Assembly (NCBI GenBank): GCA_042852035.1
Contig: BAAFHK010000003.1
Span: 120,001 to 152,000 of the forward strand
DNA length: 32,000 bases
Direction of reading: 5' to 3'
Origin: Candidatus Saccharimonadota bacterium
GTDB taxonomy: Bacteria; Patescibacteriota; Gracilibacteria; BD1-5; UBA2023
The notes below the pieces were generated by a model. That model searched no databases, was not told the origin of the DNA, and saw only the letters and a program-made list of their open reading frames with translations. Below, in pieces: positions 8,686 through 32,000 of the stretch; position 1 is the stretch's first letter; each line of letters starts with the position of its first letter. The translations under genes and the position numbers were made by a program.

Positions 8686-8759
8686 GTCCCCGTAGTTCAG
8701 TGGAAGAACACGGCACTCCTAAGGCTGAGACACAAGTTCGATCCTTGTCGGGGATACCA
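8686..8759 (+). tRNA. tRNA-Arg (anticodon CCT, reads AGG), CCA encoded
   Basis: Manual cloverleaf: acceptor GTCCCCG/CGGGGAT (G1-U72 wobble), D stem GTTC/GAAC, anticodon stem CGGCA/GGCTG (one A-G mismatch), loop CTCCTAA with anticodon at 8718-8720, T arm ACAAG-TTCGATC-CTTGT, discriminator A, CCA 8757-8759. Confidence 0.8.
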
Positions 8760-8898: not shown

Positions 8899-9957
8899 AT
8901 GCATTTAACTATCATAATGATTGGCATTGCATTATTTGAGGAGGCTTTAAGAAATCCAAATATTTTAAAACAAAAAGGGTTCCTGTTCGGTATTTTAATT
9001 TCTTTAATCTTTCTTGTTGGTTCATTTTTTTACGGGAGTGATACCTACTGATTGAGAGAACTTCTTTTTTGAGTCTGAGAGAAACAACATGGGTTACTTT
9101 TACCCATATCTCTTGGACTTCTTTTTTTTCTTCTTATCAATGAAAATAAAAAATCATTAGAACGCATGGTTCATATATCTTTGTGAGCCGCTTTCTTTGT
9201 AACCATTATTGCGATACTAGAAAATGTTCTTCATTATAATATCTTCACTGGAAGTGAATTTCAAAACACTGGAAGTTGGTGAACCATCAGAAGCACGAGC
9301 ACACTCGGAAATCCGAATTATGTAGCCTGATACCTACTTGCACACATACCCCTTCTTTATTACCGAGTACATCGATGGGAAAAATATCTATGACTCGCTC
9401 TCCTGGTTCTAGGTATTGGCATGACCGGAAGCGTTATCGGCATGACGCTATCGACATTCTTTTTTATGGCTCTTATTCTAAAAAAAACATTTCCAAAAAA
9501 CTGGCTTCCAATTCTTTTTTTTCTTGTGATTACTGGAGGCACTGTACTAAGCATATATTTATCAGGAGGTGAGAAGTGGCTGTCTCTCACTTCACGCTTC
9601 GTACTCATGGGAGAATCACTCCTATGAAATATCAACTCTCCAATACACATTTTGGTGGGTCAGTGACCGATGGGAATTATCGATTATTATGAAGCCTCCC
9701 GATCTCTCATTATAGGAAAATATTTTCCTTCATCGATGATTATTGATTCCTCACATAATATTTTTATCGATTTTTTCTTTCAGTATGGGTTTATTGGATT
9801 AGTGTTTTTAGTGTATCCTATTTTTTATTTTTGGAGAAATTACGACCAAGCGAGCAAGTGGAGCATTATCCTCTTGCTCTCTTTTCTCTCACTGAATGTT
9901 TTTGTTGTATCTCATCTTATTCTTTTTTGCCTCGTGCTGGCGAGAAACGAAAGATAA
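8899..9957 (+). CDS. O-antigen ligase/polymerase-like (Wzy_C family) membrane protein, about 352 aa
   Basis: Polytopic. ...RSTSTLGNPNYVA-G-YLL... and ...DSSHNIFIDFFFQYGFIGLVFL... are typical of this family. About 9 in-frame TGAs. TAA 9955-9957. Start is uncertain: the frame stays open upstream to the tRNA, and the first ATG is 8899. Confidence 0.72.
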
Positions 9958-11772: not shown

Positions 11773-11894
11773 TTAAGGAGTTTCAGCTTTAGAGAGTGTT
11801 TGACCACCTCCTTACTGATTCGTCCTTTTTCGCATCTTACTCACACTTGGGGGATGGGATCCCCCTGAAGTCCTCACCACCGAGCGGTGGTGAG
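11773..11894 (-). other. multi-hairpin GC-rich 3' UTR
   Basis: CTCACCACC-GCTC-GGTGGTGAG (11873-11894). GGGGGAT-CCC-ATCCCCC (11849-11865). TAAGGAG...CTCCTTA stem (11773-11780 with 11808-11814) enclosing a 27-nt loop. Confidence 0.5.
11816..11858. repeat. left arm of the imperfect inverted repeat bracketing the high-GC CDS
   Basis: TGATTCGTCCTTTTTCGCATCTTACTCACACTTGGGGGATGGG versus the reverse complement of 13281-13323. Identical blocks TCGTCCTTT, CATCTTACTCA, TTGGG; about 33 of 43 positions match. Confidence 0.6.
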
Positions 11895-11900
11895 AGTGTT

Positions 11901-13181
11901 TTACTTCTTCTTGTCGACAGGAACAATCACTTGGTCCACTGCGGAACCAGGGTTCCCCGGCGTGCCCTCGACCGTACGCGTGGCGATCACGGAGCCGTCG
12001 GGAGCCTTGACCACGTAGGTGGCCTTGGCGCCCGCATTCGGCTTGGGCAGCTTGCCCATGTAGTCCTTGAGGGACTCCGAGCAGGTCTTGCCGTTGGCGA
12101 AGATGACGACACCATTGTCGAGGCGGTAGCAGACGTTGGGGTCACGCTTGCCGCCAGGAGTGGGACGCACCACGCCAGGGACGCTCAGGACCTGAGCTTC
12201 GGCCAGGGCCGTCAGTTCGATCGTGACGGTCTGCGGCGGATCCTTCGGGGGGGTCAGGAGGAGGCGGGTCTGCTGGAAAGAGCAGCCGAATTCCATGATG
12301 CTCGTACCGAAGGAGGTGTTGGCCTGATTGCCATTGACTCCCACGGCGTTCTCCACCCCGTTGCGCACGACACCATTACTGGCACCGCCGCCCACGAGAT
12401 AAGCGAACATCACGTACTCGAAGCCGATCACATCTCGTTCTTGGACGAGTTGGCCTTTTTCGTTGTAGCCGACGATGTTCCACTCACCATAGGTGAGCTT
12501 TCCTTCGGGGCCGGTCTTGGCGCTGGTGGTCTGTTCGAAGCCGTTGTCGTAGCCCCAAGAGAAGAGGCCCGCAATCGTGCCACGGGTAGCCGACAGGACA
12601 CGTTTGTCCGTGATATTAACCTTGCCCACGCAACCCGAACGGACTGTCGTGATGCCACCACCTGGAAGGATGGTGTTGGCGGCTGAAACGGCTGCACCGT
12701 TCACCGGAATCGTGGGATAGTAGGTATTGTTCCCCACCGTCACCGTACCGACACCGCTGCCCGTACCGCCGTTGGCCTGCGCGTTCGCGTTGCCACCGTA
12801 GGCCTGGACCGCATTGCGCAGATTGGTCATGCTCGAGGAGTTGCCTCCCGAAGCAGAGACCTCACGCAGCGCACCGAGGACGTTGGTGTTGACGAGGTTC
12901 ATCGACTGGAGGGCCGTGAGGACCTCGTTGCGATTGCTCGACTGGTTGAGGAGCTGTGCTGCGAGCTCGGCATTGCCCTGGGCCACCGCATCAGCGATGG
13001 AACGAGCTGTGGAAGCAGCATTCGCATCCGCATCAGCGGAAGAAGGTGTGCCACCAGGCGACTGGTGACCCCCGCAACTGGTGCAGGGCTGCGATGTTCC
13101 CGTTGCGTGTGCCAAGCCATTACCGAAAAGCGCGGTGACGACAGCTGCTGCAATGATAGAACTTCTCATGATGGTATCCAT
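11901..13181 (-). CDS. secreted protein of unknown family (426 aa from ATG 13181, 422 aa from ATG 13169)
   Basis: Part of the 463-aa track ORF. Sec-type signal peptide MRSSIIAAAVVTALFGNGLAHA/TG. Strong G/C third-position periodicity in this frame. About 55 Gly codons, none TGA. Stop TAA 11901-11903. No family recognised. Confidence 0.8.
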   Translation of the reverse strand: MDTIMRSSIIAAAVVTALFGNGLAHATGTSQPCTSCGGHQSPGGTPSSADADANAASTARSIADAVAQGNAELAAQLLNQSSNRNEVLTALQSMNLVNTNVLGALREVSASGGNSSSMTNLRNAVQAYGGNANAQANGGTGSGVGTVTVGNNTYYPTIPVNGAAVSAANTILPGGGITTVRSGCVGKVNITDKRVLSATRGTIAGLFSWGYDNGFEQTTSAKTGPEGKLTYGEWNIVGYNEKGQLVQERDVIGFEYVMFAYLVGGGASNGVVRNGVENAVGVNGNQANTSFGTSIMEFGCSFQQTRLLLTPPKDPPQTVTIELTALAEAQVLSVPGVVRPTPGGKRDPNVCYRLDNGVVIFANGKTCSESLKDYMGKLPKPNAGAKATYVVKAPDGSVIATRTVEGTPGNPGSAVDQVIVPVDKKK

Positions 13182-13274
13182 TTTCCTGTGGCCGATTGTA
13201 TGCGGCCGGGGTTTTTGGTAGAGCGGACGGGTGTCCACCCCTTTGCTTTCCGGGGGTGGGTCCCCCCGGTCCCT

Positions 13275-13303
13275 ATTATACCAATCACCCAAATTATGAG
13301 TAA
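13275..13303 (-). promoter_or_regulatory. internal extended -10 promoter (P2) inside the right repeat arm
   Basis: Minus strand: TTACTC (13298-13303), 17-nt spacer, TGG-TATAAT (13275-13283). Confidence 0.4.
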
Positions 13304-13323
13304 GATGTTAAAGGACGACTCAA
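13281..13323. repeat. right arm of the imperfect inverted repeat bracketing the high-GC CDS
   Basis: The reverse complement reads TGAGTCGTCCTTTAACATCTTACTCATAATTTGGGTGATTGG. See left arm 11816-11858. Confidence 0.6.
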
Positions 13324-13396
13324 ACTGTGACTGGCGAGGAGCCAGCACTGAACAGAGTCAGACTTTCTCCACCGTCCCCACAAAGTGAGCGGATGA

Positions 13397-13424
13397 ATTA
13401 TAGTTTATAATATATTTGTGTCAA
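13397..13424 (-). promoter_or_regulatory. near-consensus sigma70 promoter (P1) driving the high-GC gene
   Basis: Minus strand: TTGACA (13419-13424), 16-nt spacer, TATAAT (13397-13402). Sits in AT-rich sequence at the island edge. Confidence 0.55.
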
Positions 13425-15820: not shown

Positions 15821-17647
15821 TTATGCCTTACCATTCTTTTTTCTTTCATTCTCTGTAAGCCATTTCTTGCGAAGACGGAGAGACTGTGGAGTAACTTCAA
15901 CATACTCATCATCTCCGATATAGTCAAGACAGTCCTCAAGTGTCATCTGACGAATTGGGGTGAGACGGATAGCCTCATCTGTTCCTGAAGCACGCATATT
16001 CGTAAGTTGCTTGTTCTTTGTTGGGTTTACAACAAGGTCAGAGCCTTTGAGGTGCTCTCCGATAATCATCCCTTCGTAGACTTCAGTTCCTGGCTCAATA
16101 AGAATAGGTCATCTTTCTTCAAGATTCCAGAGAGAAAATGCCATAGCTGTACCACCAAATCCTGAAATCATAGAACCAACGTCACGTTTTTCGATAGTCC
16201 CCTTATACTCATCATAGTGTGAGAACGATGAGTATATAATACCCTCACCCTTTGTCTCAATAACAAATCGTGATCGGAATCCAAGAAGTCCACGAGTTGG
16301 AACCTCGAATTCCATATTCGTCACACCATTTACAGTATTCATATTTTTACAGATTCCTTTTCGCTTCCCAAGCATTTCGAATACTGTTCCTGATGCTGTT
16401 TCTGGAACCCACATGACAACATTTTCAATTGGTTCTTGTTTCTTGCCACCTGCAACCTCGTGGAAGATAACTTGTGGAGCACCGACCTGAAGTTCAAATC
16501 CTTCACGACGCATTGTCTCAATAAGGACTGAAAGGTGAAGTTCACCACGTCCTGATACGATATAAGAGTTTCCATCAGATCCTTCGAAGTCGATTTTAAG
16601 ACCAACATTCATTTCTGTTTCTTTTTCAAGACGCTCACGAATCTGACGAGAAGTAACAAATTTTCCTTCTTTTCCAGCAAACGGCGAATCGTTTACCATG
16701 AATTCCATCTTCAGAGTCGGCTCATCAACCGTGATAGCTGGCATAGCTTCAGTGGCTGCATCGGTCGATACCGTCTCTCCAACGTAAATATCTGGGATAC
16801 CAGCAATTGTGATGATATCTCCTGCCTCTACTTCATCCGTTTCTATTTTCTTAAGTCAGAGTGAAGTATAAAGTTTTGAGATTTTTCCGGTACGTCGTGT
16901 TCCATCATTGGCAATAATGGTAACCTGTTGTCCAACTTTCGCCTTTCCTTCATACACACGACCGATACCCATACGTCCGACATAGTTGTCGTATGCAAGG
17001 TTTGCAATCTGCATCTTAAATGGCTTCGTGGTATCATTTGGTGCTTCTGCTACCTCTTCAAGGATCGTATCAAAAAGTGGATTGATATTCTCACGTGGAT
17101 CAGCAAGCTCCTTAATCGCGATACCTTCTCGAGCTATGGCGTAGACAATACGACCATCGGTAATATCAAGCTGCTCATCAGTTGCACCAAGTTGAACGAA
17201 AAGATCGAAAAGCATATCGACAACAACCTCAGGCTGAGCGGTAGGCTTATCAATCTTATTGATAACTACGATTGGCTTAATTCCAAGTTCAAGAGCTTTT
17301 TTGAGAACAAATTTCGTCTGTGGCATAGGACCTTCATAGGCATCAACCACAAGACAAACTGAGTCTACCATACGAAGTACTCGCTCCACCTCGGAACCGA
17401 AGTCCGCATGCCCTGGAGTATCGACAATATTGATCTTCACATCCTTATACATGACAGCGGTATTTTTCGCATAAATTGTGATTCCACGCTCTCTTTCCTG
17501 ATCATTAGAGTCCATGATCGTTGTCCCGACTTCTTCGTTTTCACGAAATGTTCCTGACTGTTTCAGGAGTGCGTCAACAAGGGTTGTTTTTCCATGATCA
17601 ACGTGGGCGATAATCGCAATATTGCGGAACTTTCTGCTAGCAGACAT
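15821..17647 (-). CDS. typA: translational GTPase TypA/BipA (608 aa)
   Basis: Three track ORFs (16856-17647, 16109-16744, 15821-16069) are in one frame, joined by two TGAs. [17 protein letters not shown] and NKID G-motifs. Full-length similarity to E. coli BipA as recalled from memory. Confidence 0.95.
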
Positions 17648-17776
17648 AATACTATAAAATAATGACGTGCGGAGTATACAGAGAACCCAAAAAAAGCAAG
17701 TTAAAATTTGTTTTTTTATTATAAAAATTTATCATGTCAATATATGGAATCTATAAATACATCAAGGAGATTTTTT

Positions 17777-18262
17777 ATGATTGCTTCTGCGTCTGGACTT
17801 CTAAGCCTTTCTCAGAAAGAAGTTGTTGCGAAACTCCTTGAAGTAAGCTCGCTTAAAATCACAAAACAGGGCAAAGATCTTGGGAAATTACATAATGAAA
17901 TTTACATCGATTTTATGAGAACTTTGGAAGATTTTTTACAGAAAAATAGTGTCCGAGTATCGGCTTTTCATTGACATATTCATCGATCGAATGATGGCAC
18001 TTATACACTTGGATATGATATTGAATATACGAGAGTTGCTCCATGACAGTCGCCCCATAAACACGTAGAGCTCATGAGTAGTGTCTGGAGAGAGACAAAA
18101 AAAGGAAAACTTCAAGCAAAATCAAAAAACTCTGAAAAGTCTCGATCATACAATCAGAAATGGGCTTCATCATTTACTGGAATCACTATTTTCGAACACG
18201 AATCTTGAGATGACGATCTCTATCAAGTAGGTCGGTTTTACCTTGCAGAAAAAAAGAAATAA
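17777..18262 (+). CDS. hypothetical protein (161 aa)
   Basis: ATG 17777 preceded by AAGGAG at 7-nt spacing (one of the few strong SD sites in the window). Three in-frame TGAs. TAA 18260-18262. Confidence 0.6.
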
Positions 18263-18313
18263 AATTTGTGCCTTAAATTCAACTATTGACTCACAAAAAA
18301 TATACGGAATAAT

Positions 18314-18341
18314 TTGATTTTAATTGTGTTTTTTATATAAT
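18314..18341 (+). promoter_or_regulatory. candidate promoter of the giant-gene cluster
   Basis: TTGATT (18314-18319), 16-nt spacer, TATAAT (18336-18341). Confidence 0.45.
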
Positions 18342-18393
18342 TTTGGCTAAATAAGCAGAAACTTCTCTCGATATTTGCGAGAATTTGGAAAAT

Positions 18394-21300
18394 ATGGTAG
18401 AGTTTCTGTACTTTCTTACCCTTTTCCATATGGCAGAATCTGTAGAAATCGTCCGAAGTGATGCAAACACATGACCAACATATCATTTCTCGAACTATAA
18501 GCAGCTCCTTAAGGCCCTTGAGGCAAATTGATATAATGAAAAATGGTGAGCAAAAGATGTTCCAGAGACTTTTTCCCAAATTACTCTGAGTGAACAAGAG
18601 TTGAAGGATTTAGTAAAACGACTTAATCAAGCACAAACTTGCTTTGAGCAACAGAATCTTCTACGGATAATTACGATGAATAAATTGAAATCTGAACTTG
18701 GAAGTATCACGTTTCGCAATACCGAAGAGCTCAAAACTGCAATAGAACAAAGGTGAGTTGATTATCCAAAAAAATACCTCCATCAAAGCGCTGAATCTGA
18801 AATTATAAAGTGATTCTCAGCTCACAGAACTCTCTCTACTTCTCAATGGGAAAAACTTATAACAGACCTAAAGTGAGTAAACGAGTCAGACCCAATGCTC
18901 GATCAAAAACGAGGAGAAATTATTATAGCAGCATTCTGAATTTCAACAGGAACTCCCCGTGCATGAACGGCCTGACTTGAGGCAGCAACTCCTGGACCAC
19001 AAAAAGTTCTTGTTGATGAATTTTATCCGTCTCGCGAGGAGGCTACAAAAGATGCATTTAAATGAGCAACTTCATTCCCTATCACAGTAAAATATTCTGA
19101 GGGAGGAAAATCTTATGAATATCAAGTTACCACAACAGGAAATAAGATGATTTTTGGTTGAAAAGAAATTTCTTTTACTCACAAAGCAGGATCGGTGGCA
19201 AAAATATCTCTCGTAGAAAATATGATTGTATTTTTTGATGCATCGAACAAACAGGTATTTGCAATCGATAAAAGAACATTTGGGTCTGAAATTAGTGGGG
19301 AACTTCTTAAAAGAAATAATCCAAAATTAGAGCTCTTTGGTGATATAAAACTTCAAGTAGCCTGATCCGTAAGTGCAAAAAATATTCCTACCCCTCAAGT
19401 GGAGAAAGAACTCACCGGAGAGGAGCTTAGGCAGTATATTTTTACACTTGCAAAAAAAGAACTCGAAGGGATAACCAGTACTGCGGAAAAGATGACTCCT
19501 GAAGAACTCGAACAAAAGATACAAAGCGCAACTGCTTTACTCGATTTCAAATGGCTTGAAAAAATTCCTGGCATGAAGGATAAAGTAAAAGAAATAATGA
19601 AGTTTGATGTTACTATGGAGTGAGTTATTGGGGCTGGATTTGTCGGCATGCTCGAAAAACAAGGGTATAAAATGCGATTTGTCGGAAAAAACAAAGTTGA
19701 AGTTGGACATGCAAGTGGAAGCACTGATGCAAAGGATGTCGAATCAAAGGTAAATATGCATCTCTCGAATAACCCTCGATTTGTCAGGATGGTTCAAACA
19801 GGAATGCTCTATAGACAACCATCTTTTGAAATGTATCGTCAAAATGTTACCGATGCTGATGGAAAACTTATCAATCCTGAAAAAACAACCATCTCGAACT
19901 ATACGGAGTATCTCATGAAGCGTCGCAAATCCCTCAACCCAACAGAAGCTCTTTTCTTACAATCAGCTCGATACTTTGATAAAGATATTTCATTTGCCTC
20001 TATAGTAACTCAATGAAAGGACTACCAGGCTGTCGTAGGTTTTATGCAGAGCATGACGGATGACGAGGATCTCCGTGGTCTTCTCGGCACTCCTGAAAGA
20101 GGTCCAAACTGAACAGGATGATCTCGAGCCACAGAACCCCCAGCCCCTCCTGCATCAGGCAATGAAAGAGGCGGATCAGGAGGTCCAGCATGAACTGCAT
20201 GACAGGCACTTGGAAAAATTGGTTGACTCATTGGAAAGCTTGGAGAAGCAGGAATTGGTGGATGAATGCGTGTTCTTTGAGAGATTTTTCAAGAAGCTAA
20301 TAAAGCAGGTGGAGCATATGGAACACTCGCAGTAATCGGTCTTATTGGATATTCTATATTTGGAAAAAAAGGACTTGGATTTTGGGGAACCATCGGGGCA
20401 ATCCTTGGTCTCGGTGTGGCTGATACTGCAGCACGGGGTTGATTCAAGGGTATGTTCTCTTGATGAAATACTCCAGGGGGTAACCCAGCCTGAGAACCTC
20501 CAGCTCCAAATGCTGCTGCTGCAGCTGTTGCACCTCCAGCGCCATCCGTATGAACTGGGCCTGCAAATCAACCTTGAGAAACCCCTCAAGCTAAACCACT
20601 TACAGAATCTTCATTTATTGCTCGTGCAGTTGGTCGAGAGAATATTTATGATACAGATGTTGAGAACGAACGAAGCATAATAAATGCGACGAAAAAAATG
20701 AATTTCTTAAAACTTCAGACCGCTCTATCGAAGTGAGATAAACCTTCTTGGAAGGCTGCTGTAGATAGTGCGGGGTTCAAATCTGGAAGTGCTGAGTATA
20801 AGGCTCTTGCTCAGGCAATTCATGCAAAAAATGAGTTTGGACGAAATACTCTCGCTTCAGTCATGAATCATATAAGTATTAATGAGCATATGAAGAGTCT
20901 TGATCCTGCGAATAGTGCAGGACTCTCACTCGAACAGGCTATAGAATACATTATTAAAAAAGAAAATGAAAAGAAGCAGGAAGACGCTCAATGAACTTTT
21001 GAAGTAGAACAACCAGCCTGATCTCCTCCAATTCCTCCATGACATCCATGAGTGAGAGATATTCTTAACAAAAATGAAGCCTACGGTAATCTCGTGATTC
21101 TTGCACGAATGGTTGAAAATGGTTACCTACCAAAAATCAACTTTACCGCAGGCGAAGTTCTATGAGGAACTTGATTTGTACAAAGATTTGTTCGCTGATT
21201 TGTCTGGGTATGACTTGGTGGACCCCTTACGAATAATACGCCTGGTGCGAATTGGTTTTCATGAAAATACCGAGTTCATGAGGAAGCTTTTTATAGCGCT

Positions 21301-22332
21301 GTAAAAAATCTTGTTGATGAAGAGAAAGCTGTTATCAAAAAAGAAACTCCATCACTCCCAAATGAAGCTGTATTTCAATGACTTCGTGATGAAGTAACAG
21401 CAAGAAATGCGGCCCTCTTAGAACTCGAGGAAGCTCTTTCGAGCAAAGATCCTGCAAGAATCAAATCCGCCCTTGCAAAATATCGTGAAGTAGCAAAAAC
21501 ACCTTTCTATAAATGAAGAATAGATAAGGAAAAATTTGCTCTTTCTGAAAGACAGTCTATCACTGCTATAGAGACTGTAAATGCCCGAATTCAGGAAGAA
21601 TACAATACTTGGAAGCAGGCTCAAGATATCGCCAACTCAGAAACCGCAACCCCTGAGCAAAAGAAAACTGCTCTCGAAGCCTCAAATAAATATAATCAAA
21701 GCGTAATGGAACTTGAGGCCCATGGAATAAAGAATCTTCAGCTTCTTTCTCCTGAGGCTCGAGAAGTGGTCATGAAAGAAAATCCTTGGGCTGCAAGAGT
21801 TGCTCAAGCGAATGGTTGACTCGCAAAAATGAATGAAAAACTTGGAAAAGTATGAAGTCATTGGGCAGGAAAAACAATACTCTGAGTGGGTCTAATATGA
21901 CTCCTTTGGGAAAACAAATGATGAGTCGCTGAACTTTGGAATAAGGGTGACTATGTAACCCTCTCAAAATTAGGATGGGATTTGGTTGCTGGCGCTGTTC
22001 CTGTTGTCTCATCAGTTCACGAAACAGCTATGTTGAGTAATGCTGGATGATATCGTGATTTCATTCTCTGAAAGTGATATGAAATGGGAACCCTCGAGAA
22101 GTGATTCCGTGTTGCTGGAGCCATCCCTCTTGGAGTATCATTAACAACAGTTGGAGGAAAACTTGCAGTTAGAGCTGGGGCAAGAGGTGTAGGACAGGCC
22201 GTAATAGGAGTTTCAGAAATCGTATGAAGTTCTGTAAAAACTATCTGAACCGTTGGAACCTTTGGATTCCTTTGATATCAAGCAGTTCATGTTGCCTATA
22301 ATATTCCAATGCACCTTATAGATAATAAATAA
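18394..22332 (+). CDS. giant membrane/surface protein A (about 1312 aa; alternative start 18430)
   Basis: Frame 1 checked line by line: no TAA/TAG from 18355 to TAA 22330-22332, and about 52 in-frame TGAs. Central Gly/Pro linker plus two TM helices (AYGTLAVIGLIGYSIF, GFWGTIGAILGLGVA). C-terminal Gly-zipper-like hydrophobic blocks. Confidence 0.75.
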
Positions 22333-22336
22333 TAAT

Positions 22337-24199
22337 ATGACACTTCCAGAATCACCTCGAGTTACCCCTCCTGAAACTTCCTCAAATAAACTTCTCAATC
22401 AATTCCGTTCCACCCTCGACAAACGCTGGAGTGAGTTCGATGTAGCCACACTTCGTGAAGCTGGATGAGTCAGACTTATACGAGATAATCATGCTGACTT
22501 TATTAAAGCAAAAGCCTCATTTGAGTGAGCAAAGAAAGTTCTAGGGACTATAACAACTGATAAAGAACTTAAAGCGCAGCTCAATGCTCCGGGAGTTCTC
22601 GCAGGTACTATCGCTGATCTTGAGTCATACTTCAGCACGCTCAATGCTCAAGATAAGCAAAAAGAATATAATAAGGTCGTGGCAAGTACTATCGCTGATC
22701 TCTCCTCACTTAAGGCTCAAGTATCAGGAACTTTTGATGACGCAAGAAAAGCAGAACAAGCAAGAGCTACAGCAAATACCCCAATCCCTACCCATCAAGG
22801 CAATACGAACCCTCTTGCATCACTTGAGGCATCTATCCCAGAAGTCGCTACTGTCGTTACTGGACTCTGAGCAACAGCTGCAAGTACCGGGCTCGTGTCA
22901 GAATGATGGCTTAAAACAAAAATGAAGTGATGGGTGACTGATTTTGAAGAGTGGATTACTGAACTTCTTCCAGATGGTGAATGGAAAACTAAAATTACTG
23001 GCTTTTTTACCATGCTCAAAGTGAAGCTCGGTATAACGAAACCAGATGAAAGTAAACCAAATACACCTGAATCAACAAATTTTATAAGCGATGCTACTTA
23101 TACTTCAACTGTAACAATAGTACGAAAATTCTTTCTTCCAAAAGATTCATGAAATGCTTGAGAACTTTATGCCTATAAAACATTCTGAGAGAAAACTTTT
23201 TCTGAACTCTCACAGATATATGCAAATAGGGGGAGTAAGTCTATTAAAGAAGCTCTAAATATCCCAAAAGAAGCAAAAATTACTGACAAGGAATTGGAAG
23301 TTTGACTTGCAGCTGTAGTTGATGAGTCTCAAAAGAAATGAAAAATATTCGTAAGCCAATGTCGTAGAACATGTGGTCCAGATTTTTCAAAACTTACAAT
23401 GTTTGAGTTATTTCAAAAGGTTTGAAACCCGTTATCATACCTAAAAACTCTTGCACAAATCGATGTAACAGATAATCCTCAGGAATTATTTGCTAATTTT
23501 GGGTTCGAGATTGATAAAGAGTGAAAATGAGTAGGTGACCTTGCCGAAAAGGCTGATAAACTTTCTCTGTCGGCCAGAAAAATATTTTTCATTTCTGCGA
23601 TGGCATGAGCAAGATATACAAATACTGAACAATGAATGACTAGTCTCAAACAAACGCTAAACTGGGGTGATATTGAGAAGGATCCTAAGCTCAAGAAAGA
23701 ATGTGAGGATATCCTAAAGTTTGGTGAAGCATTTCGATGAAAAATACTCAACAATCCAAGTATTCATCTTGGTTATAAAGAAAAATTCCAAGAGGTCTTT
23801 GATAAAAAATGACTTTCTTTCCGTGGTCTCGCAACACTCTACTGTATGCTTGATGGAAAAACTGACTTTGAAAGCATGACTTGACCTGAGAAGCTCTGAT
23901 TTTACTGAGCATGTGGGATGCTAGCAAGCGAGATGGATAGCTTTGAAAAATGAGGCTTTTCTACTGCATATCTCAAAAAACTCTGATCTGATTCACATGA
24001 AGTGCCTGAGGATGTAAAAGAGTTTTGAAAAGAGGTTCTTGGATGAGTAACTTCAAAAATAGCAAGTGGACTTTGGGAGTCTGCAAAATTTATTCTCTGA
24101 GTGTGAAAAGAGGCTCCTGAACTCGCACTTGGTGCCCTTGCTCTTTGGTATTTTTGATGAAAAGCCCGTAAACGCATGCACCAGTTTACTCACCATTAG
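22337..24199 (+). CDS. large orphan protein B (620 aa)
   Basis: The ATG at 22337 is 4 nt after the stop of A. Frame 2 checked line by line to TAG 24197-24199. C-terminal hydrophobic segment EAPELALGALALWYFGGKARKR. A 16-nt exact intragenic repeat GTACTATCGCTGATCT occurs at 22605 and 22686. Confidence 0.75.
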
Positions 24200-24200
24200 C

Positions 24201-25217
24201 ATGTCCTCAAGACCAGCTCTCCTCCTCGCCGCAGCCCTCGCGCTCACTTCCCCTTCTGATGAAGCAATTGCTCGATGATGAAGGTGAGGTTTTTCTGTGG
24301 GAAAATCCGTCAATAAAGTTTTAATAGCGCCAAAATCTGCACCAAAAACCCCAACGAAACCATTTGAATGACAAAATACTGGAACAACAACAAAACCTCT
24401 ATATCCAGGAAACTCTAGCACCGCTGGAGTACTAACAAGAGTTTGAAGCGCCACCCGGACGACACTTGACTTCCTTGCTCCAAAGGATGATTTCATGCGA
24501 AATCTTTACCTTCTTCGAGCCTTTTCTTCATGAGCCCAATACCTTCTATTTACACCAGAAACACTTGATAGCGTGGCAGGAGTTCAGTATAAAACAATGA
24601 TGAAAAATGCTCAAGCCCTACCGCCAACCCATCCAACATCACTACGAATAAAGAAAATCACCGATCGTCTTATTAATGCGGTAGAGTTTGACCCAAAAAT
24701 TCCTCAATCCATAAAACAAAGGATGAAGTGGGAAGTACAAGTAATAGCCTCAAATACGGTCAATGCATTCTGTCTTCCTGGTGGAAAAATGGCAATATAT
24801 ACTGGAATCATTGATCAACTTCACCTTACTGATGATGAAATAGCTGTAATCATGGGACATGAGATTACCCATGCACTCGAAGATCATTGATATAAACGAC
24901 TCAAAGAGTCACTTGCTCTAAGGGGAATTACTGCTGTTGCCTGAGCAACAAGTGGGAGATATATTGGAGCATTTGATCTCGCCTGAGAACTCTGGCTCCT
25001 ATCGAATTCACGCGACCACGAACGCGAAGCAGATAAATGATGACTCGATATTGTACTTAGGGCAGGATATGATGTATGTGCTTGAGAAAAGGTCTGGGAA
25101 AAAATGGGACAAGCTTCAAGGTGAGCTCCACCTGAAATCCTTTCAACTCACCCACGAACCACTGAAAGAAGAGAAAACCTCAGAGAACAGGCTCGTCGCG
25201 TTTGATGAAAGTGCTAG
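24201..25217 (+). CDS. M48-family zinc metalloprotease (YggG/LoiP-like), 338 aa
   Basis: The ATG at 24201 is 1 nt after the stop of B. Signal-like MSSRPALLLAAALALTS; NAFCLPGGKMAIYTG; HEITH at 24858-24872; ...EREADK-GG-LDIVLRAGYD...STHPRTTERRENL. TAG 25215-25217. Confidence 0.85.
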
Positions 25218-25235
25218 ATACAGAAATAATTTGAC

Positions 25236-25277
25236 ATATGTATATTTTTAAATATAAAAATATACATATTATTTTTT
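25236..25277 (+). terminator. perfect 15-bp AT-rich palindrome plus T-run (terminator and/or operator)
   Basis: ATATGTATATTTTTA (25236-25250), loop AATA, TAAAAATATACATAT (25255-25269), then TATTTTTT. Confidence 0.5.
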
Positions 25278-25289
25278 AAGTCATTATTT

Positions 25290-26216
25290 ATGAAAAAATT
25301 GCAAGGAGCTGCAATTGCTCTTACGGCAGCATGAGCACTTATGAGTGGATCAGCAGCAGGATCAGAATCAAGAAGAGTTGGTGAAGAGGTATGTACGTAT
25401 TCTCAGAATATCCTTTCAGGAAATCCCTCTGACCCAAATGGTGTAAATTGGCATCTTCCATGATTTATTCGTCCAATAATTGTAGACTGTAGCACTACGG
25501 TATCAGGAAACACAACTGCAAACGGGAAAATAAAATATACTCGATCACCGAGTCTTACTACTCCAAGTACTGGTACAGCTCGTGCCAATACTGTTCCACG
25601 GGCACAAACAGAAATTGAGCAATTCGCAGCCTGAATCAATCAACCAATCAAAAAGGGTGACGATGTAAAACCATACTATGCACCCCAAAGAAAACCAACA
25701 ATTACTATAACTGGATGAAATGTTATCTGAAATGCTTCAGCTGAATGAGTGAAAGAAGCATGAGACGTTTCATTAATTCAAGCAAATCCTACTTGAAATA
25801 CAGCAATTGCACAGATGCGAGCAACCGATGTTCGTAACCAAATTATTGCAGCTCTTCGTGCAACTTGAGCAACAGTAACTGGTGATAGTACTATAAAAAT
25901 TTCTTCAAAAATACATCCACTTACTCCGGATGAACTCGGTGCCATCTATGCTCAATCTCTTCAGAGAAATGGAAATGGTACCAATCGTGCAATGGAGGAA
26001 ATCGCTGCCTATAATGCCTGAAGCGTATCTACTGCGGCTCTCGAAAGTGCCATCTGAGAAAAACGTTTTGCCGAAGCAACCGTAACATATACAGCAACGG
26101 GGGTAAATAGAACCGTCGACACGTCGAATTGGAACTATGCATATTGGCTCGGGATTCTCTCGATACTTTGACTGTGAGGAAGGGGGATGATGCATAAGAA
26201 TCGAAAAAAAATCTAA
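25290..26216 (+). CDS. secreted protein D with C-terminal hydrophobic anchor plus basic tail (308 aa)
   Basis: MKKLQGAAIALTAAGALMSGSAAG signal-like N-terminus. The C-terminus is ...NWNYAYWLGILSILGLGGRGMMHKNRKKI. Frame 3 checked line by line. TAA 26214-26216. Confidence 0.7.
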
Positions 26217-26220
26217 TATA

Positions 26221-26243
26221 AATGGGGCCTCGCCCCATTTTTT
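26221..26243 (+). terminator. rho-independent terminator
   Basis: ATGGGGC-CTC-GCCCCAT followed by TTTTTT. Confidence 0.7.
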
Positions 26244-26271
26244 GACAAATTGATATGAGTTGTGATACAAT
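26242..26271 (+). promoter_or_regulatory. candidate promoter of gene E
   Basis: TTGACA (26242-26247), 18-nt spacer, TACAAT (26266-26271). Confidence 0.4.
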
Positions 26272-26298
26272 TACCCTATCTACTATTAATTTCTCTAT

Positions 26299-26520
26299 AT
26301 GTCACTCCCTTTAGCTCAAGACCTTCACTCGTTTCACGAAGAAGCCATTAAACAAAACTCTGGTAAGGTCCGCTGGAGTGATTTCGAGAAAATCGCTCGA
26401 ATACAGAAAAAAGATATCCCAGAAGTTAAGAAAACCATGGAAGCCAATATTGCATGGGTAGAAACAGCAAAAAATCCAGACGGAACTCCTTATACAGAAG
26501 CACAAAAAGTTGCAGCATAG
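26299..26520 (+). CDS. 73-aa ORF, in frame with and possibly the N-terminus of giant protein E
   Basis: ATG 26299 is the first start after TAA 26287-26289. Ends at TAG 26518-26520. The same frame continues open for 1323 more codons. Confidence 0.5.
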   Translation: MSLPLAQDLHSFHEEAIKQNSGKVRWSDFEKIARIQKKDIPEVKKTMEANIAWVETAKNPDGTPYTEAQKVAA

Positions 26521-29500
26521 GCAGAATGGATTCGCTATCTTAACTCCGTTATTGAACTAGAATCATCGTGGAGATCGGGAAGAATAGCTATAGAAAATCA
26601 CCACCTCGAGAACTACTCTGCAACAAAGGAAAAAACGAAAGCAAAGCTTGCGGAACTTTTTGGAGAAGTAGCAGGATCGGGTAATGCTCCAGGAAACTGA
26701 CCGAATGGTCCAGCAGCTGCAGGAGAAAGCATTAAAGTTGATGGTCCTGATTTTATAAATGAAGCCGTAAGACTCATCGATGATCCAGAGAATCTTAGAA
26801 AACATCTCGAAAAAGTTGATGGAAAGATTGATCAGGCAGGAAAAGATAAACTTCTCGAATTCGTCGATGATATGATTGCCCGAGAATGAAATAGAGCAAA
26901 ACAAAGAAAACTTGAACGAGTAAAAGAAGAAATAAAGAAGCTAAAACTTCGAAGTACTTCTCCAGAGGTCATAACAGAAGTTTCAGTAGAAAAGCTCATT
27001 AAATGAGTCCAGGGAAGGCTTGAGGACTACTCAAAACAAAAATGATATACCGCAATAAAACTTGAGGGCACAGGAGTGTATGCAAAATGAGTTGAAAAGG
27101 CTTCAGCCGTACAGGAGTACCAAGTAACCGTTCATCGAAAAATCACCGTGAATGGTTCGACTTCAGACGCTTCTCCAATAGTAATCTCTGGAATTTGGCT
27201 CCAAACAAAACAACTCTGACCACTTAAAGCAGAAGATGTTCTCTTCAAAGAAATTACAACAAAAATTGAAGAAGCAATGAAGTCCCCAGAATCACAAAAA
27301 GATAGTATACTTGAGGCAAATAAGAAATTTCTCGAGGCAAATAAGGTAAAAGTCGATGCTCTTCTGAAGAGAATTCCAGAAAATCCAAACCCAACTTGGC
27401 TCGAGCAAATACCATCACTCATCAACAACCCAACAAATGAGAATATAAAGAAACTCCAAGAATATTTGGGTATAACTCCTGGAAGCGGAAAACTCGATGA
27501 TGCTACAATAGTAGCACTTGAAAAGGTACTTCCCGCTGGAACACCAACATGAAGAACTGATGTTTGATCTTCAGGAGGAACTCAAGGATGAAGGGAATGA
27601 TCTCGAGAACAAGTTGATTCAGAAGCTGTTGCATATAAATACAATAAACGATACCTCGCAAGCAATCAAAAAAGATTCGGTGATATTCAAAGAAAACTTT
27701 CCGATGCTTCCGATGCAAAACTTAAAAGTCTTGCAAATATACTAGATATATATATAGAAACTCCAAGCCCGGCAAATGCACTCTCAATTCAAAAAGCACT
27801 CAACGGCAAAGATTTTTCAAAGTGACTCACTGAAGATAAAATGATAGGACCTGTGAGTTTAGCGGCTCTGGAATCTGTCATAGGTATTGCATCCCCTAGG
27901 GATCCTGATGGGGCAGGTGGAACGGGTGGCTCTTGAAGGAGAAGAAGAGAAGCTCCTGGATCAGGAGGAAGAGAAAGTGGACCTGCATGAGCACCACCAG
28001 CAGGACAAAGAGACAGAAATCCTCTTGCCTGAGGAGATGCTACAGGGCCACAAGAGTCACTTAATCCTCAAGATAGCACTGTTTCTTTTAGCCGATCTGG
28101 ATCTCTTATTCTTCTCAATGCAAAGGATAAAGAAGGAAATGTTATCCGTGGACTTTCTTATGCTGAACTCCAAAAACTCTCAGGAGCAACCCTCAATAGT
28201 GACCCAAAAATCAATGAAAGAATGAAGGGTGAATATAATCAACTTATCCTCCTCTCTACTATCGCCGATATATGGGTACAAGCAGCAAACAAAGATATGG
28301 ATAATTTGTTTGTTGGATCACTTCGAAGTGGACGAAAAGAGATATACAAACGCAATATTGATGCTATTACCAAATATATCTCTGGTATGCAACAAAAATT
28401 CCTGAAGGGAGAATCTGTTCAGAGTGATATATTTGATGCCTATGCAAAATTTGATTCTGCAAATAGAGACGCGTGAGTTACTCCACCGATAAATATCGAT
28501 GATCTCCGAAAGGCTCTTAATATCGTCCAAGCAAGTGGCGGTACAATGACACAGAAACGTGCTGATATATTAAAGACTCTTTCATCAGTATTTAATACAA
28601 CCGCAACTGAATGAGTAAAGAATACCGCAATGGCTGAAGTAATGAAAATAGAAGTATTCAAATCTGTTCGTGCAAAGCTCGAAGATGCAAATTATTTATC
28701 AACATTTATTGGCTGAACGGGAAAAGAGCGACTTGATCTTCTTCAAAAGGATTTCTGACTGACTTATGATCAAGCCTATTCACTCGCTCGAGAAGTGCGT
28801 GATGTTCTTCAGGGAATGAACACAAACAAAGAAAAAATCAAAGATTCTCTTGCGGCTCAATGAATTCCAGCAGAACAAAGAGATGAGAGAATCAAGCAAG
28901 CAGTTCTTCTTGCAACAAGAACAGTACTCAGTAAATGAGTTGTTGATAATAAAATAGACACCGTAAGTTGACCTTATGTAGAGGCTTACAAGACGGCAAG
29001 TAGAGACCTTACAACATCTCAGATTATTGATATATCAGTTCAGATAGCTATTTCTATGGCACCTATGTGAGCATGAATGCTTGCTGTACGCGGAGCTGCA
29101 GCTCTCGGAACAAAAGTGCTTCCTGGACTTGCTGCATCATGAAGTCGGACAGTTGCTTTATGAAAAATTGCAGGGGAAGGTATAGCATTCTATGAAGGAT
29201 ATAATCTTACGAATAACTTCCTTCGTAACCAGGATACCGAGAATTTCTTGGGTGGACTCACAGAAGGCTGGAGAGATCCAAAAGAGATAGTCAAGAGTGT
29301 CGCAATGGTATGAGTCATTCGCGCTATGGGAATGATACCTGGACAAAAGATTGATGCGATGATTCTAAAAGATAACTCAAAGATGAGACAGCTTGCACTT
29401 GAAGCAGGAAAGGTTGCTGGTATTGCAACAGCCGTGACTGTAACAAGCCAATGAGTAGAAGCAATGTTCGGGGAAGATTTTCATCCTACCCCAGAAGAGT

Positions 29501-30492
29501 TTATTCAAGCAATTATCATGACGGCGCTTTTCAGGAATCTTCCAAAAAAATCTCTAGGAAAAGCGGAATGAAAGAAGCCTGAAGGACCAAAAGAAAAATC
29601 ATCTACCACTCCAGAATGACACGAACTTACTCCTATTACAAGTAGGGCTGGAATAAAGGAAGTACGAACACGACAATCTGCTGATCCGACATATAAGCCA
29701 GAAATTGTAGATGCGAAAGGAAACGTTCTTACTGTAGAGTCTATACGCTGATCAAATGGTCGAGAAGTACTCACTGTTAAGGATGTAAAGGGAAATATTT
29801 CTGAGATTAGTGCTGCTGATCTTGTAAGTGGAAATTATAGAGCCCTCACACGAGCTCAGGAAGCAGCAAAACCAGAAGAAGCAAGAGGAAATGAAACCAC
29901 AAAACCTGAATGAGCGGAACTTCAGAAGTTTTTGACTCAATCTATAAGCGCTAAAGATATTCGAAATGTTCAACGAGCCATGCAAAAGGATCCAAATCTT
30001 TTCCCTCAGTTCATTGCTCAAGATGGAACTATATGGACTATTCGCTCTATAAAAGGAACAAACGCTTCCAATACACAGATTGAAATCGGACCTCTTGGAA
30101 AGCCATCAGTAGCTCGGAGAGCGACTCAACAAGAATTTGTAGAGGGACTCAATAGAAATATTTTAGACCTTACAGTTACCGATACTTTAACACGACTAGA
30201 AAAGATAAAAAAGTGACTCAGTGAACTCAAAAGTCCAAACCTAGAAGCAGTCAAAAAATGGGCAAAAGAAAATAAAGGAATCCTTATTGCATGAGGTGTT
30301 GTCATAACTCTTGCTGGATGAGCAGCTTACTTAATTGGTATAAATGGGCGCGGTGAGGTCCAAGTAGTACCTGCAGATAATTGAGCTGCTACTATGGATG
30401 ATGCTGTCGATGGAGCCGTGGGAAGCACTATTCCTCGAGCTGCTACTATGGATGATGACTCTGCTGCAGCTTGAGCTGCTACTATGGATTAG
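26521..30492 (+). CDS. giant membrane/surface protein E (1323 codons open after the TAG; first canonical start ATG 26872)
   Basis: Frame 1 checked line by line to TAG 30490-30492. There is no ATG/GTG/TTG in the first 117 codons. Two peptidoglycan-binding-like motifs, Gly-zipper/TM blocks (...ISMAPMGAGMLAVRGAAALG..., ...GILIAGGVVITLAGGAAYLIGI...), and a C-terminal AATMD repeat. Confidence 0.7.
30383..30489 (+). repeat. three exact copies of GAGCTGCTACTATGGAT at the 3' end of gene E
   Basis: Copies at 30383, 30437 and 30473 (54 and 36 nt apart, in frame) encode (G/R)AATMD(D) three times. The last copy is followed directly by the stop. Confidence 0.8.
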
Positions 30493-30513
30493 TACTAACC
30501 CTTTGAATTAATT

Positions 30514-30541
30514 TTGACATAATTATAAATTATATTATAAT
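30514..30541 (+). promoter_or_regulatory. consensus sigma70 promoter of gene F
   Basis: TTGACA (30514-30519), 16-nt spacer, TATAAT (30536-30541). Confidence 0.55.
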
Positions 30542-30570
30542 TATAAAAATTACTCTTTAATTATTTATAT

Positions 30571-31716
30571 ATGAAAAAAATAATTGGTCTTGGTGGTGTT
30601 ACTGAAAGATTTCCCACTGGTCGAAATGTTGCCCAACAAGAACTCTGAGTAGCAGCATACCGATTTGAAGAGTCTGCCAAGGCGAAATGAATTGATTGAA
30701 TATCAGGATTTGAAGAGCTCAAGAAAAAAATTGAAGAGCTCACAAAGGAAATAAGCGAACTCCAAGGTGAACTCTGAACTCTCCGGGAGAATCGAGAGAA
30801 AATACTGACTCTCAAGCAAAGAATGGTGGAAGCATTTCAATTTTTTATAGAAAGGTCTTTAACTATAGGAAAGGGGGCTCTCACGATAGCTCGACTGGTT
30901 GATCCAACGATACCCACTCGTACAGTAGAAGCTGATCTTAAAAAACGAATTTCAAGCGCGGAATTTCGATGAAGCCTCATTGAATTTGTAGAGAAAATGA
31001 CCGATGCTACTTTCCAAAAAATTTCTAAAGCCGTAAAAGAATCTCAATCTACAGATTTAGCAAGTGATTTCTGAGTATTTGAACAGAATCGAACCTATTT
31101 TGCGTCGAGAAAAGATGAACTGGATACCATTGAGGCTGATATTAAGGCAAAGGATGGAGAAATACAAGATGCTAAAGTAAGAAAATCAACTGTGGAAGGA
31201 ACTTATAACGAACTCAAGCCCCTCTACGATACACTCAAACAGAAAGAGTGATCTGCAAATCTTCGAACATGAGCCTCTCGTACCCTCGCCATAACTCTAT
31301 GAGGAGTAGCTACAGCTTTAGCGCTTTCTACTACTGGGGCCCCAGAAAAAGCTCCACAAATATCAGGAGGAGGACAGACTGTAGCATGAGCAAGAAATAC
31401 GGCTCCTTCTGTAGGGCAGCCAAATGCCTGACATCAAGTTGTTCTCAGTGGAAATCTACTACAAATCTCACCTAATACATGAGGAGTCAATAATGCATTT
31501 CCATGAAAAAATGGAAAATACCAAGTGGAAATAAATGGTGACATTACTACCTGAGCAAGTGGAACACTTACCTACAGGATTGGATCTTCTCCCAAAGCAA
31601 GCATGCCAATAACTCTTAAAGAGGGTTTGAATATGCTCACCACGCCTACTGGCGAAAGACTCAGTATTGTCATCGTGAGAAGTTGAAATGGAGCATCTTT
31701 ATCAGTTCTTGACTAA
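30571..31716 (+). CDS. coiled-coil-rich orphan protein F (381 aa)
   Basis: ATG 30571. Frame 1 checked line by line. About 17 in-frame TGAs. K/E/L-rich N-terminal two thirds and a Gly/Thr/Ser-rich beta-like C-terminus. TAA 31714-31716. Confidence 0.7.
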
Positions 31717-31722
31717 GAAAAG

Positions 31723-32000
31723 CTATTTTTTTGGAAAAACTTTATTGAGAACCCTCTCGTCCTTTCTCCAATTCCTCGCTACCTTCACTCGAAGGGCGAG
31801 GAATATTTTTTTTCAGAAAATTTCTTCAAGAATTATTCTTGATTTTAACCCGATTTCTCCGATTTTTTTCCCTCATTTCCCTATGACAATAACTTTCTGT
31901 GATTCTGTTTCAACATTTATATAAGCCTGAATAGAAAGCATTGGATGTGGCTTATCGGGGGTACCTCATTTTTCCTCGATTTGAGTTACTTGCACAAAAC
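31723..32000 (-). CDS. era: GTPase Era, C-terminal KH domain (5' part outside window)
   Basis: ...INVETESQKVIVIGK-G-GKKIGEIGLKSRIILEEIF-G-KKIFLALRVKVARNWRKDERVLNKVFPKK, TAG 31723-31725. The KH GxxG Gly is TGA at 31873-31875. Codon boundary at 31998. Confidence 0.85.
31771..31813 (+). terminator. hairpin plus T8 downstream of gene F, embedded in the era coding sequence
   Basis: ATTCCTCGC (31771-31779), 16-nt loop, GCGAGGAAT (31796-31804), then T8 (31806-31813). Confidence 0.4.

Follow-up and report, generated by a model that had tools for sequence, protein, structure and literature searches.

The locus described here raises the question of why HHAS10, an episymbiotic bacterium from a group in which very small genomes are typical, should yet devote 13 kb to a conserved cluster of six genes, designated A to F, which lies between typA and era. 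The cluster was analyzed in a stretch of 32,000 nucleotides (positions 120,001 to 152,000 of contig BAAFHK010000003.1, assembly GCA_042852035.1), which is called the window in the following and provides the position numbers for all its features. The metagenome-assembled genome (MAG) of HHAS10 originates from activated sludge, has been placed in c__JAEDAM01, o__BD1-5, f__UBA2023 and uses UGA as a glycine codon, and fluorescence in situ hybridization (FISH) located HHAS10 within Zoogloea clusters, whose signal fades close to HHAS10 (PMC11393006). The same publication contains no discussion of the six-gene cluster. HHAS10 is among the few episymbionts from the Candidate Phyla Radiation (CPR, Patescibacteria) with an identified host, and the ways in which these organisms attach to and feed on their hosts have been largely unexplained so far.

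The answer which we favor, and to which we would give about an even chance of being right, is that the cluster encodes a lineage-specific envelope complex with a core of A and B, which probably functions at the cell surface or in the interaction with Zoogloea. As judged from the sequences, the products would represent membrane-anchored proteins of the UGA-as-glycine Patescibacteria (BD1-5 / JAEDAM01) plus an exported M48 protease. An envelope complex is suggested by the hydrophobic segments in all products, the conserved hairpin of A and the signal-like N-termini of C and D, and further by genes for PG_binding_1 and glucosaminidase proteins upstream of A in two related loci, a weak SH3_3 match of an E-like protein and PT-TG matches of A-like proteins. 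The assumed interaction with the host is based on the host dependence of the organism (PMC11393006).

With UGA as a sense codon, six tightly packed open reading frames (ORFs) on the plus strand fill the region from 18.3 to 31.7 kb (Table 1); under translation table 11, the longest UGA-free in-frame stretch on this strand amounts to about 147 codons. Both features agree with a previous interpretation made from the letters alone (the sequence-only reading), which had reported the same six ORFs and fragments of up to 144 codons, and Pfam matches of the flanking genes corroborate the placement between typA and era. The additional characterization of the genes as orphans that routine pipelines would miss has to be withdrawn. 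GenBank lists the ORFs of the cluster under table 25 as GAB0175241.1-GAB0175247.1 (HHAS10_11200-11260) from a 'Candidatus Altimarinota bacterium' MAG, all of them as 'hypothetical protein' according to an exact look-up, the gene calls in Logan and IMG for the same and for related contigs employ table 4 and hence contain Trp at the UGA positions, and A, B, D, E and F each have homologs in related uncultured bacteria. The region is called by pipelines yet unannotated, as is the case for code-25 genes, which public pipelines now call, but without functional annotation.

UGA codes for Gly, not Trp, in the window, because it occurs at conserved Gly positions of fmt, rlmD and era and, in fmt, at none occupied by Trp. 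Six of the 13 UGA codons of fmt are aligned with conserved Gly residues of solved Fmt structures in the PDB (0/13 with Trp), and others encode the Gly of the DLYxGxG methyltransferase motif (S-adenosylmethionine, SAM) in rlmD and that of the GxxG motif in the KH domain of era. Together with the FISH results (PMC11393006), these alignments substantiate the previous assignment to a code-25 CPR episymbiont. UGA makes up 29-53% of the Gly codons in A-F, which is similar to rlmD, fmt and an ABC permease gene and unlike a GC-rich island elsewhere in the window, and the six-gene cluster is therefore native as judged by its UGA usage. The share is 18-53% across other native genes and 4% in typA and nusA, and the near-avoidance in the latter two may represent a codon bias within code 25 that is linked to expression.

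When UGA is read as sense, many spurious ORFs of 150-376 codons appear on the opposite strand as well, so the possibility has to be considered that the cluster itself consists of chance open frames in AT-rich sequence. This possibility appears practically negligible, given that ORFs of 1312 and 1323 codons are tightly packed on one strand, that AlphaFold2 (AF2) predicts confident domains, that a genuine M48 domain is present mid-cluster, and that at least eight further organisms encode protein-level homologs, with the order conserved. The six ORFs are real genes, because intact frames of 300-1400 codons have homologs of 20-60% identity in other organisms.

Gene order in related genomes

Related loci were collected via homologs of the M48 protease (L003-L007 and L009) or via A alone (L010-L012), the latter being unbiased with regard to M48. 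Locus L003 contains genes for an A-like protein of 1141 aa, a B-like protein of 636 aa, M48, an E-like protein of 811 aa and an F-like protein of 366 aa, flanked by dnaN and a NUDIX gene at one end and by ATP synthase at the other. In L004/L009, A (1099 aa), B (658 aa) and M48 are followed by F-like and E-like genes on the opposite strand. In L005 and L006, A is divided into two genes, A1 with about 740 aa and A2 with 850-940 aa, which precede B and M48; a D-like gene comes after M48 in L006, and the 266-aa product encoded at this position in L005 shows no detectable similarity to D. L007 contains A, B and M48. At least five other organisms thus share the cluster order, in differing chromosomal contexts, so that a lack of conservation in related genomes, which would have spoken against the sequence-only reading, is not the case. 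Since the flanking genes differ among the loci, the cluster must travel as a unit.

The loci found via A alone are simpler. L010 contains a PG_binding_1 gene (472-1716) directly upstream of A on the same strand, then A and B; L011 ('Candidatus Gracilibacteria bacterium', GC 22%) contains a glucosaminidase gene (8990-9940) directly 5' of the A homolog, again on the same strand, followed by A-like, B-like and a gene for a 742-aa protein; and L012 (GC 28%) contains A-like and B-like genes, then one for a 734-aa protein. M48 is absent from L011 and L012, and the partial gene after B at the contig end of L010 has no similarity to M48. B directly follows A in all related loci extending beyond the 3' end of A (9/9). 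A and B are an old, always-adjacent conserved core pair, because L010-L012, although found via A alone, keep A and B without M48, and M48, D, E and F should be regarded as additions in the HHAS10 clade.

The family of A is narrow, fast-evolving and lineage-specific: among 1.84 billion representative proteins, an exhaustive profile search yielded only 48 matches (many of them table-11 fragments) at E <= 1e-3. Its homologs are 43% (L004/L009), 33% (L003) and 25% (L010) identical to A of the window. As judged from hhalign probabilities of 99.5% for A versus A1 and 99.0% for A versus A2, A represents a fusion of two families, A1 and A2, encoded separately in L005 and L006. A word-indexed protein search left A as well as B, D, E and F unmatched although B, F and A-like proteins are contained in the collection, which indicates a limit of its filter and not absence. 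Back-translated searches of genome and metagenome contigs with A or its family yielded no confirmed locus, using patterns that cannot match UGA-Gly codons and of which two were usable; the same restriction on UGA-Gly codons applies to E, for which no relative was found among the viral contigs of IMG/VR.

The three best plus-strand promoter-like sites, which are consensus matches only, are located in the gaps before A, E and F. Since such sites precede A, E and F and a terminator-like hairpin follows D, three transcription units are predicted, consisting of A-B-C-D, E and F, respectively. This arrangement agrees with L009, where the E-F pair is inverted as one unit. In the organism represented by L004/L009, a bAvd / 23S_rRNA_IVP gene (L009, 19829-20215, minus strand) was observed at a distance of about 6 kb from the cluster; bAvd is an accessory protein of diversity-generating retroelements.

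Domains and membrane segments of the gene products

Hydropathy runs, from which the membrane segments were called, indicate hydrophobic segments in every product from A to F; the signal peptides of C and D were read from the sequence. No domain, catalytic or otherwise, was recognized in A, B, D, E or F by Pfam, NCBIfam, PHROGs or PADLOC, consistent with the previous notion that catalytic motifs are confined to the protease. PADLOC returned a single match at the coiled-coil level, between F and JetC (7.5e-4, 15 bits), and its models do not assign any of the cluster proteins to anti-phage defense. Sequence searches of the PDB with a profile of the A family and with B, D, E2 and F yielded coiled-coil noise only.

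The AF2 model of A, which covers residues 331-1312 and is based on an alignment of 27 sequences, shows two confident domains and a long helical region, with low confidence in the Gly-rich and hydrophobic parts. Domain 1 contains the motif G-x-LY-x-x-PSF-x-x-Y, conserved in the family alignment, and has no fold match in the PDB; domain 2 has none in either the PDB or BFVD. A Foldseek comparison of the model retrieved nothing from the PDB at E <= 0.001 and no match from BFVD, where E-values were 0.16 at best and TM-scores around 0.1. The Gly-rich segment and its hydrophobic hairpin (aa 611-690) are flanked by Pro/Gly/Ala-rich linkers and represent the best-conserved part of A, with 54% mean identity to the L009 and L003 homologs. 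By comparison, the remaining conserved regions reach 31-43%, the linkers 21-28% and the N-terminus 7%.

The C-terminal module of A shows the motif D-x-G-x-(I/V)P-x-(V/I)-G ... R ... G-x-IP-x-G, a diverged version of the family motif D-x-G-I-G-x-IP-x-x-G-G ... G-x-D-L ... R-x-L-S-x-x-E-R ... G-x-IP-G-x-G. PT-TG (PF14449) matches this module in the A-like protein of L012 with 5.8e-6 and 26.6 bits (gathering score 23.5) and the homologous module in that of L011 with 1.1e-4 and 22.5 bits. Altogether, three of nine A-family C-terminal segments match PT-TG and six match DUF4112. A of the window itself was not matched to either of these Pfam families, neither at full length nor with its C-terminal 230 aa even at E <= 10. 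The module exhibits 41% identity and is followed by a conserved tail of about 50-70 aa in the family. Beyond M48, it appears to be the one link of the cluster to known biology.

The cluster had also been described as rich in glycine zippers, of which the Gly-rich hydrophobic segments do exist and the enrichment does not hold. GxxxG occurs 18 times in A, compared to 15.1 +/- 3.5 in shuffled sequences, and [GAS]xxxGxxxG five times, compared to 4.0 +/- 2.0; canonical glycine zippers are missing from B and F, and most instances in A and E are located in linkers. Likewise, the common architecture attributed to A, B and E receives no backing from detectable paralogy, since all E-values between them in BLASTP were 0.1 or more and the hhalign probabilities were 0.2% for A-B, 0.2% for B-E and 19.8% for A-E (E 1.2e-3 over about 80 columns).

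B contains a weak hydrophobic segment at aa 170-188 and another one at the C-terminus. Its AF2 model is all-helical with a mean predicted local distance difference test score (pLDDT) of 62 and has no Foldseek match in the PDB at E <= 0.001, and the homologs in the related loci are 29-40% identical. The product of gene C is indeed an M48 protease, as evident from its match to PF01435 (3e-29, 102.6 bits at a cut-off of 20.3), and carries a signal-like segment at the N-terminus; its homologs in L003-L007 share 50-60% identity. Its M48 domain and HExxH motif resemble those of the BepA/LoiP/YcaL group, and BepA and LoiP are its best partial matches in NCBIfam, but its score of 61.6 bits compares to an equivalog cut-off of 570 bits. 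Unlike these periplasmic or exported M48 proteases of Proteobacteria, it occurs in a bacterium thought to be single-membraned, between genes for giant membrane proteins. The closest non-CPR relatives of C are betaproteobacterial (Comamonas, Burkholderiales; 40-45% identity). As this is the class of Zoogloea, and as UGA accounts for 50% of the Gly codons of C, there are hints of a host-to-symbiont transfer from Betaproteobacteria that would be old. D was previously proposed to be secreted and anchored, in agreement with the N-terminal signal read from its sequence and its C-terminal hydrophobic segment. The D homolog of L006 is 43% identical (lipobox-like LAAGC). An OmpA-like identity of D was considered and rejected, having no support from Pfam or PDB sequence searches.

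Gene E is interrupted by an in-frame TAG within a conserved stretch, and its two parts are listed in GenBank as GAB0175245.1 with 73 aa and GAB0175246.1 with 1206 aa, the latter starting at the ATG at 26872. The L009 homolog spans residues 6-143 of E straight across the TAG with 48% identity and an Ala opposite the stop codon, which shows that E derives from one ancestral gene. The TAG, which is also present in the Logan assembly of DRR350542 (probably the same sample), could have arisen by a recent nonsense mutation, could be a variant within the population or could serve for readthrough. The hydrophobic parts of E include a block around aa 905-1020 and a last segment at aa 1327-1350. E also contains an internal duplication (about aa 1101-1145 / 1199-1247; Smith-Waterman score 57, compared to 24 +/- 4.3 after shuffling) and an acidic tail with three copies of AATMDD (30350-30492). 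Parts of E are 30-48% identical to their homologs, with 33% for the C-terminal region compared to the 811-aa protein of L003, which in turn weakly matches the bacterial SH3 domain SH3_3. Short tandem repeats also end the other E-like proteins, namely APAQTGTRES x4 in L003 and P(T/S)DVPVP x4 in L009. The hydrophobic block of E seemed by eye to resemble the C-terminal end of the A protein from L010, but a relationship was rejected as not significant (BLAST E 0.097; Smith-Waterman z 3.7, with the best shuffle scoring higher). F consists of an N-terminal coiled-coil region and a C-terminal region of about 120 aa, and its homologs show 32% (L003) and 26% identity (L004/L009, on the opposite strand).

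Table 1. Positions of the cluster genes, their predicted subregions and signals, and the flanking genes in the window. aa, amino acids.
Feature	Position	Strand	Description
Gene A	18394..22332	+	1312 aa from first ATG; 52 UGA-Gly codons
Gene A, GenBank version	start 18430	+	GAB0175241.1 / HHAS10_11200; 1300 aa
A domain 1	19501..20043 (aa 370-550)	+	alpha/beta; AF2 pLDDT above 90
A Gly-rich segment and hydrophobic hairpin	20224..20463 (aa 611-690)	+	hydrophobic runs 638-657 and 660-676
A domain 2	20581..20973 (aa 730-860)	+	all-alpha; AF2 pLDDT 93-98
A C-terminal module	22012..22203 (aa about 1207-1270)	+	diverged PT-TG / DUF4112-like motif, from family alignment
Gene B	22337..24199	+	620 aa; GAB0175242.1
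Gene C	24201..25217	+	M48 zinc metalloprotease; 338 aa; GAB0175243.1; HEITH motif
Gene D	25290..26216	+	308 aa; GAB0175244.1; N-terminal signal peptide, C-terminal hydrophobic anchor
Gene E	26299..30492	+	73 codons, in-frame TAG at 26518-26520, 1323 codons
Gene F	30571..31716	+	381 aa; GAB0175247.1; hydrophobic segment aa 238-258
Promoter-like sites before A (two)	18286..18341	+	10/12 consensus matches each
Terminator-like hairpin after D	26220..26243	+	intrinsic type; 9-bp stem, U run; -12.9 kcal/mol, z -3.3
Promoter-like site before E	26242..26271	+	TTGACA-18-TACAAT, extended TG; 11/12 matches
Promoter-like site before F	30514..30541	+	sigma-70 consensus TTGACA-16-TATAAT; 12/12 matches
typA/bipA	15821..17647	-	flank; Pfam GTP_EFTU, EFG_C, BipA_C on called fragments
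era, 3' end	31723..32000	-	flank; KH domain, Pfam KH_2 5.7e-13

Possible roles of the cluster

In the envelope complex which we favor, A would be held in the membrane by its conserved Gly-rich hydrophobic hairpin and the PT-TG/DUF4112-related C-terminal module, and its large helical domains, joined by Pro/Gly linkers, would constitute a scaffold together with B. The M48 protease and D would act on the outer face, and the whole set may serve the cell surface or the attachment to, or attack on, the Zoogloea host. The envelope location advanced in the sequence-only reading is plausible with respect to the hydrophobic segments of all products, but A, B, E and F are without signal peptides as judged from their sequences. 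This is the first of several observations that weigh against the proposed complex. Anchoring by a hairpin may leave most of the mass in the cytoplasm, which would fit a scaffold on the inner face equally well, and PT-TG does not match A of the window. Since the more distant A-B loci lack M48, D, E and F, the products of all six genes need not belong to a single machine. Finally, E contains an in-frame stop, and the high usage of UGA, a codon shunned by typA and nusA, may suggest modest expression.

A scaffold on the inner face of the membrane, which would act in division, in cell shape or in the positioning of the chromosome or pili and be a lineage-specific substitute for missing cytoskeletal or divisome parts, is an unlikely alternative. 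Its cytoplasmic coiled coils would be tethered via hairpins and linkers rich in Pro, similar to ZipA or FtsK, and such an arrangement would account for the lack of signal peptides in A, B, E and F, whose long N-terminal helical regions precede the first hydrophobic segment, as well as for the native codon usage and the housekeeping genes around the cluster wherever it was seen (typA/era, dnaN/ATP synthase, tuf/ribosomal proteins). It is difficult to reconcile with the fast divergence (20-40% identity versus 50-60% for the linked M48) and the variable N-terminus of A, both unusual for core proteins, with the secretion of the partners C and D, which are predicted to be co-transcribed, and with the wall-related genes adjoining A in L010 and L011. 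An origin from a mobile element, either as phage tape-measure or minor tail proteins or as parts of a monoderm conjugation or type IV secretion system, is very improbable. A and its neighbors share with tape-measure proteins their length, high helix content and Gly-rich hydrophobic stretches, several tape-measure proteins are found among the weak, non-significant BFVD matches of A, and one PHROGs family matches the M48 gene. However, PHROGs contains no match for A, B, D or E, searches of 50,697 phage and 72,556 plasmid records by tblastn with A and E were equally negative, and the best BFVD match has the E-value of 0.16 given above. There is no sequence, profile or significant fold similarity to tape-measure proteins. 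Genes for capsid, terminase, tail, integrase, VirB4 or VirD4 proteins are absent from the window and from the related loci, Pfam and NCBIfam scans revealed no domains of conjugative type IV secretion (VirB4/VirD4, VirB6-like, relaxase), E has no relative in IMG/VR, and the UGA usage is native. Both the tape-measure and the conjugation reading were therefore rejected, and the homology to such systems that had been named as a potential refutation of the sequence-only reading was looked for and not found.

Compared to the inner-face scaffold, we consider it somewhat less likely still that A is an exported effector resembling polymorphic toxins, which permeabilizes the Zoogloea membrane with B as partner or immunity protein and is processed by the M48 protease. 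Insertion would be achieved by the PT-TG-like module, the Gly-rich hairpin and the short hydrophobic C-terminal tail of A, comparable to the glycine-zipper LXG toxins TspA and TelE. The parasitic lifestyle of the organism and the position of the Gly-rich hairpin as the most conserved segment of A are in line with this idea, as is the detection of PF14449 in L012, where it exceeds the gathering score, and in L011, both times within the homologous counterpart of aa 1207-1270 of A. PT-TG marks polymorphic toxins, and many PT-TG proteins are without a known toxin or trafficking domain (bioRxiv 10.1101/2025.10.01.679605). The A family resembles the 'PT-TG singleton' proteins of that study in this respect. 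It differs from PT-TG proteins in several others: A of the window remains below any threshold, the module is located at the extreme C-terminus, and the proteins comprise 950-1300 aa with an internal Gly-rich hairpin. No LXG, WXG, VgrG, RHS or FHA trafficking domain was detected by Pfam or NCBIfam in A-F and 20 proteins of relatives, and no secretion ATPase is present among the called neighbor genes. The variation is reversed relative to polymorphic toxins, with 7% identity at the N-terminus and 41% at the C-terminus, and the module is followed by a tail that is short and conserved. Moreover, the gene downstream of A codes for B, a conserved protein of 540-730 aa, and DUF4112, the family matched by six of the nine C-terminal segments, comprises small membrane proteins, so the motif may be a mere membrane hairpin. 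Since trafficking domains are missing, the N-terminus is variable and the tail is short and conserved, the A family does not qualify as a member of the polymorphic toxin systems and appears at most 'like' PT-TG proteins.

A more far-reaching version of the envelope complex would have A and B as the core of an undescribed host-interaction apparatus of the UGA-as-glycine Patescibacteria, in which the hairpin of A enters the Zoogloea membrane, helped in the HHAS10 clade by the protease of betaproteobacterial derivation, E and F. We regard this version as rather improbable; if true, it would represent a new means by which an episymbiont opens or holds its host. Very large membrane proteins are enriched in Vampirococcus lugosii, a predatory member of the Absconditabacteria, and have been proposed to act in host recognition and attachment (PMC8080830). 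V. lugosii is likewise a host-dependent code-25 CPR relative, with the likeness of its giant proteins taken from the description only; those proteins are described as containing WD40, PKD and other known interaction domains (PMC8080830), and none of these are present in A, B and E. With its conserved hairpin and the toxin-associated module of its relatives, the cluster represents a concrete candidate for an episymbiont-host interface. If it encodes an internal scaffold instead, it would illustrate how such minimal cells construct their architecture when the usual parts are lacking.

Other features of the window

A tRNA-Arg(CCU) gene (8686-8759, plus strand) was the sole RNA gene detected in the window; tRNA-Gly(UCA), as expected for code 25, was not among the RNA genes detected there. 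Between typA and A, an ORF named U (17744-18262, plus strand, 172 aa) has neither a Pfam match nor a homolog in the related loci, and its N-terminus TSRRFFMIASASGLL resembles a twin-arginine signal. The GC-rich island mentioned above extends over 1.5 kb (11800-13400) with 61% GC within a genome of 38% GC. It contains an ORF at 11901-13178 on the minus strand, which codes for 426 aa with a signal-peptide-like start, has a GC3 of 73% and uses UGA at 0/55 Gly codons; this ORF is without a Pfam match, and the island is without a match in plasmid DNA. The island looks like a recent transfer from a high-GC organism with the standard code, possibly the Zoogloea host, or like a chimeric join.

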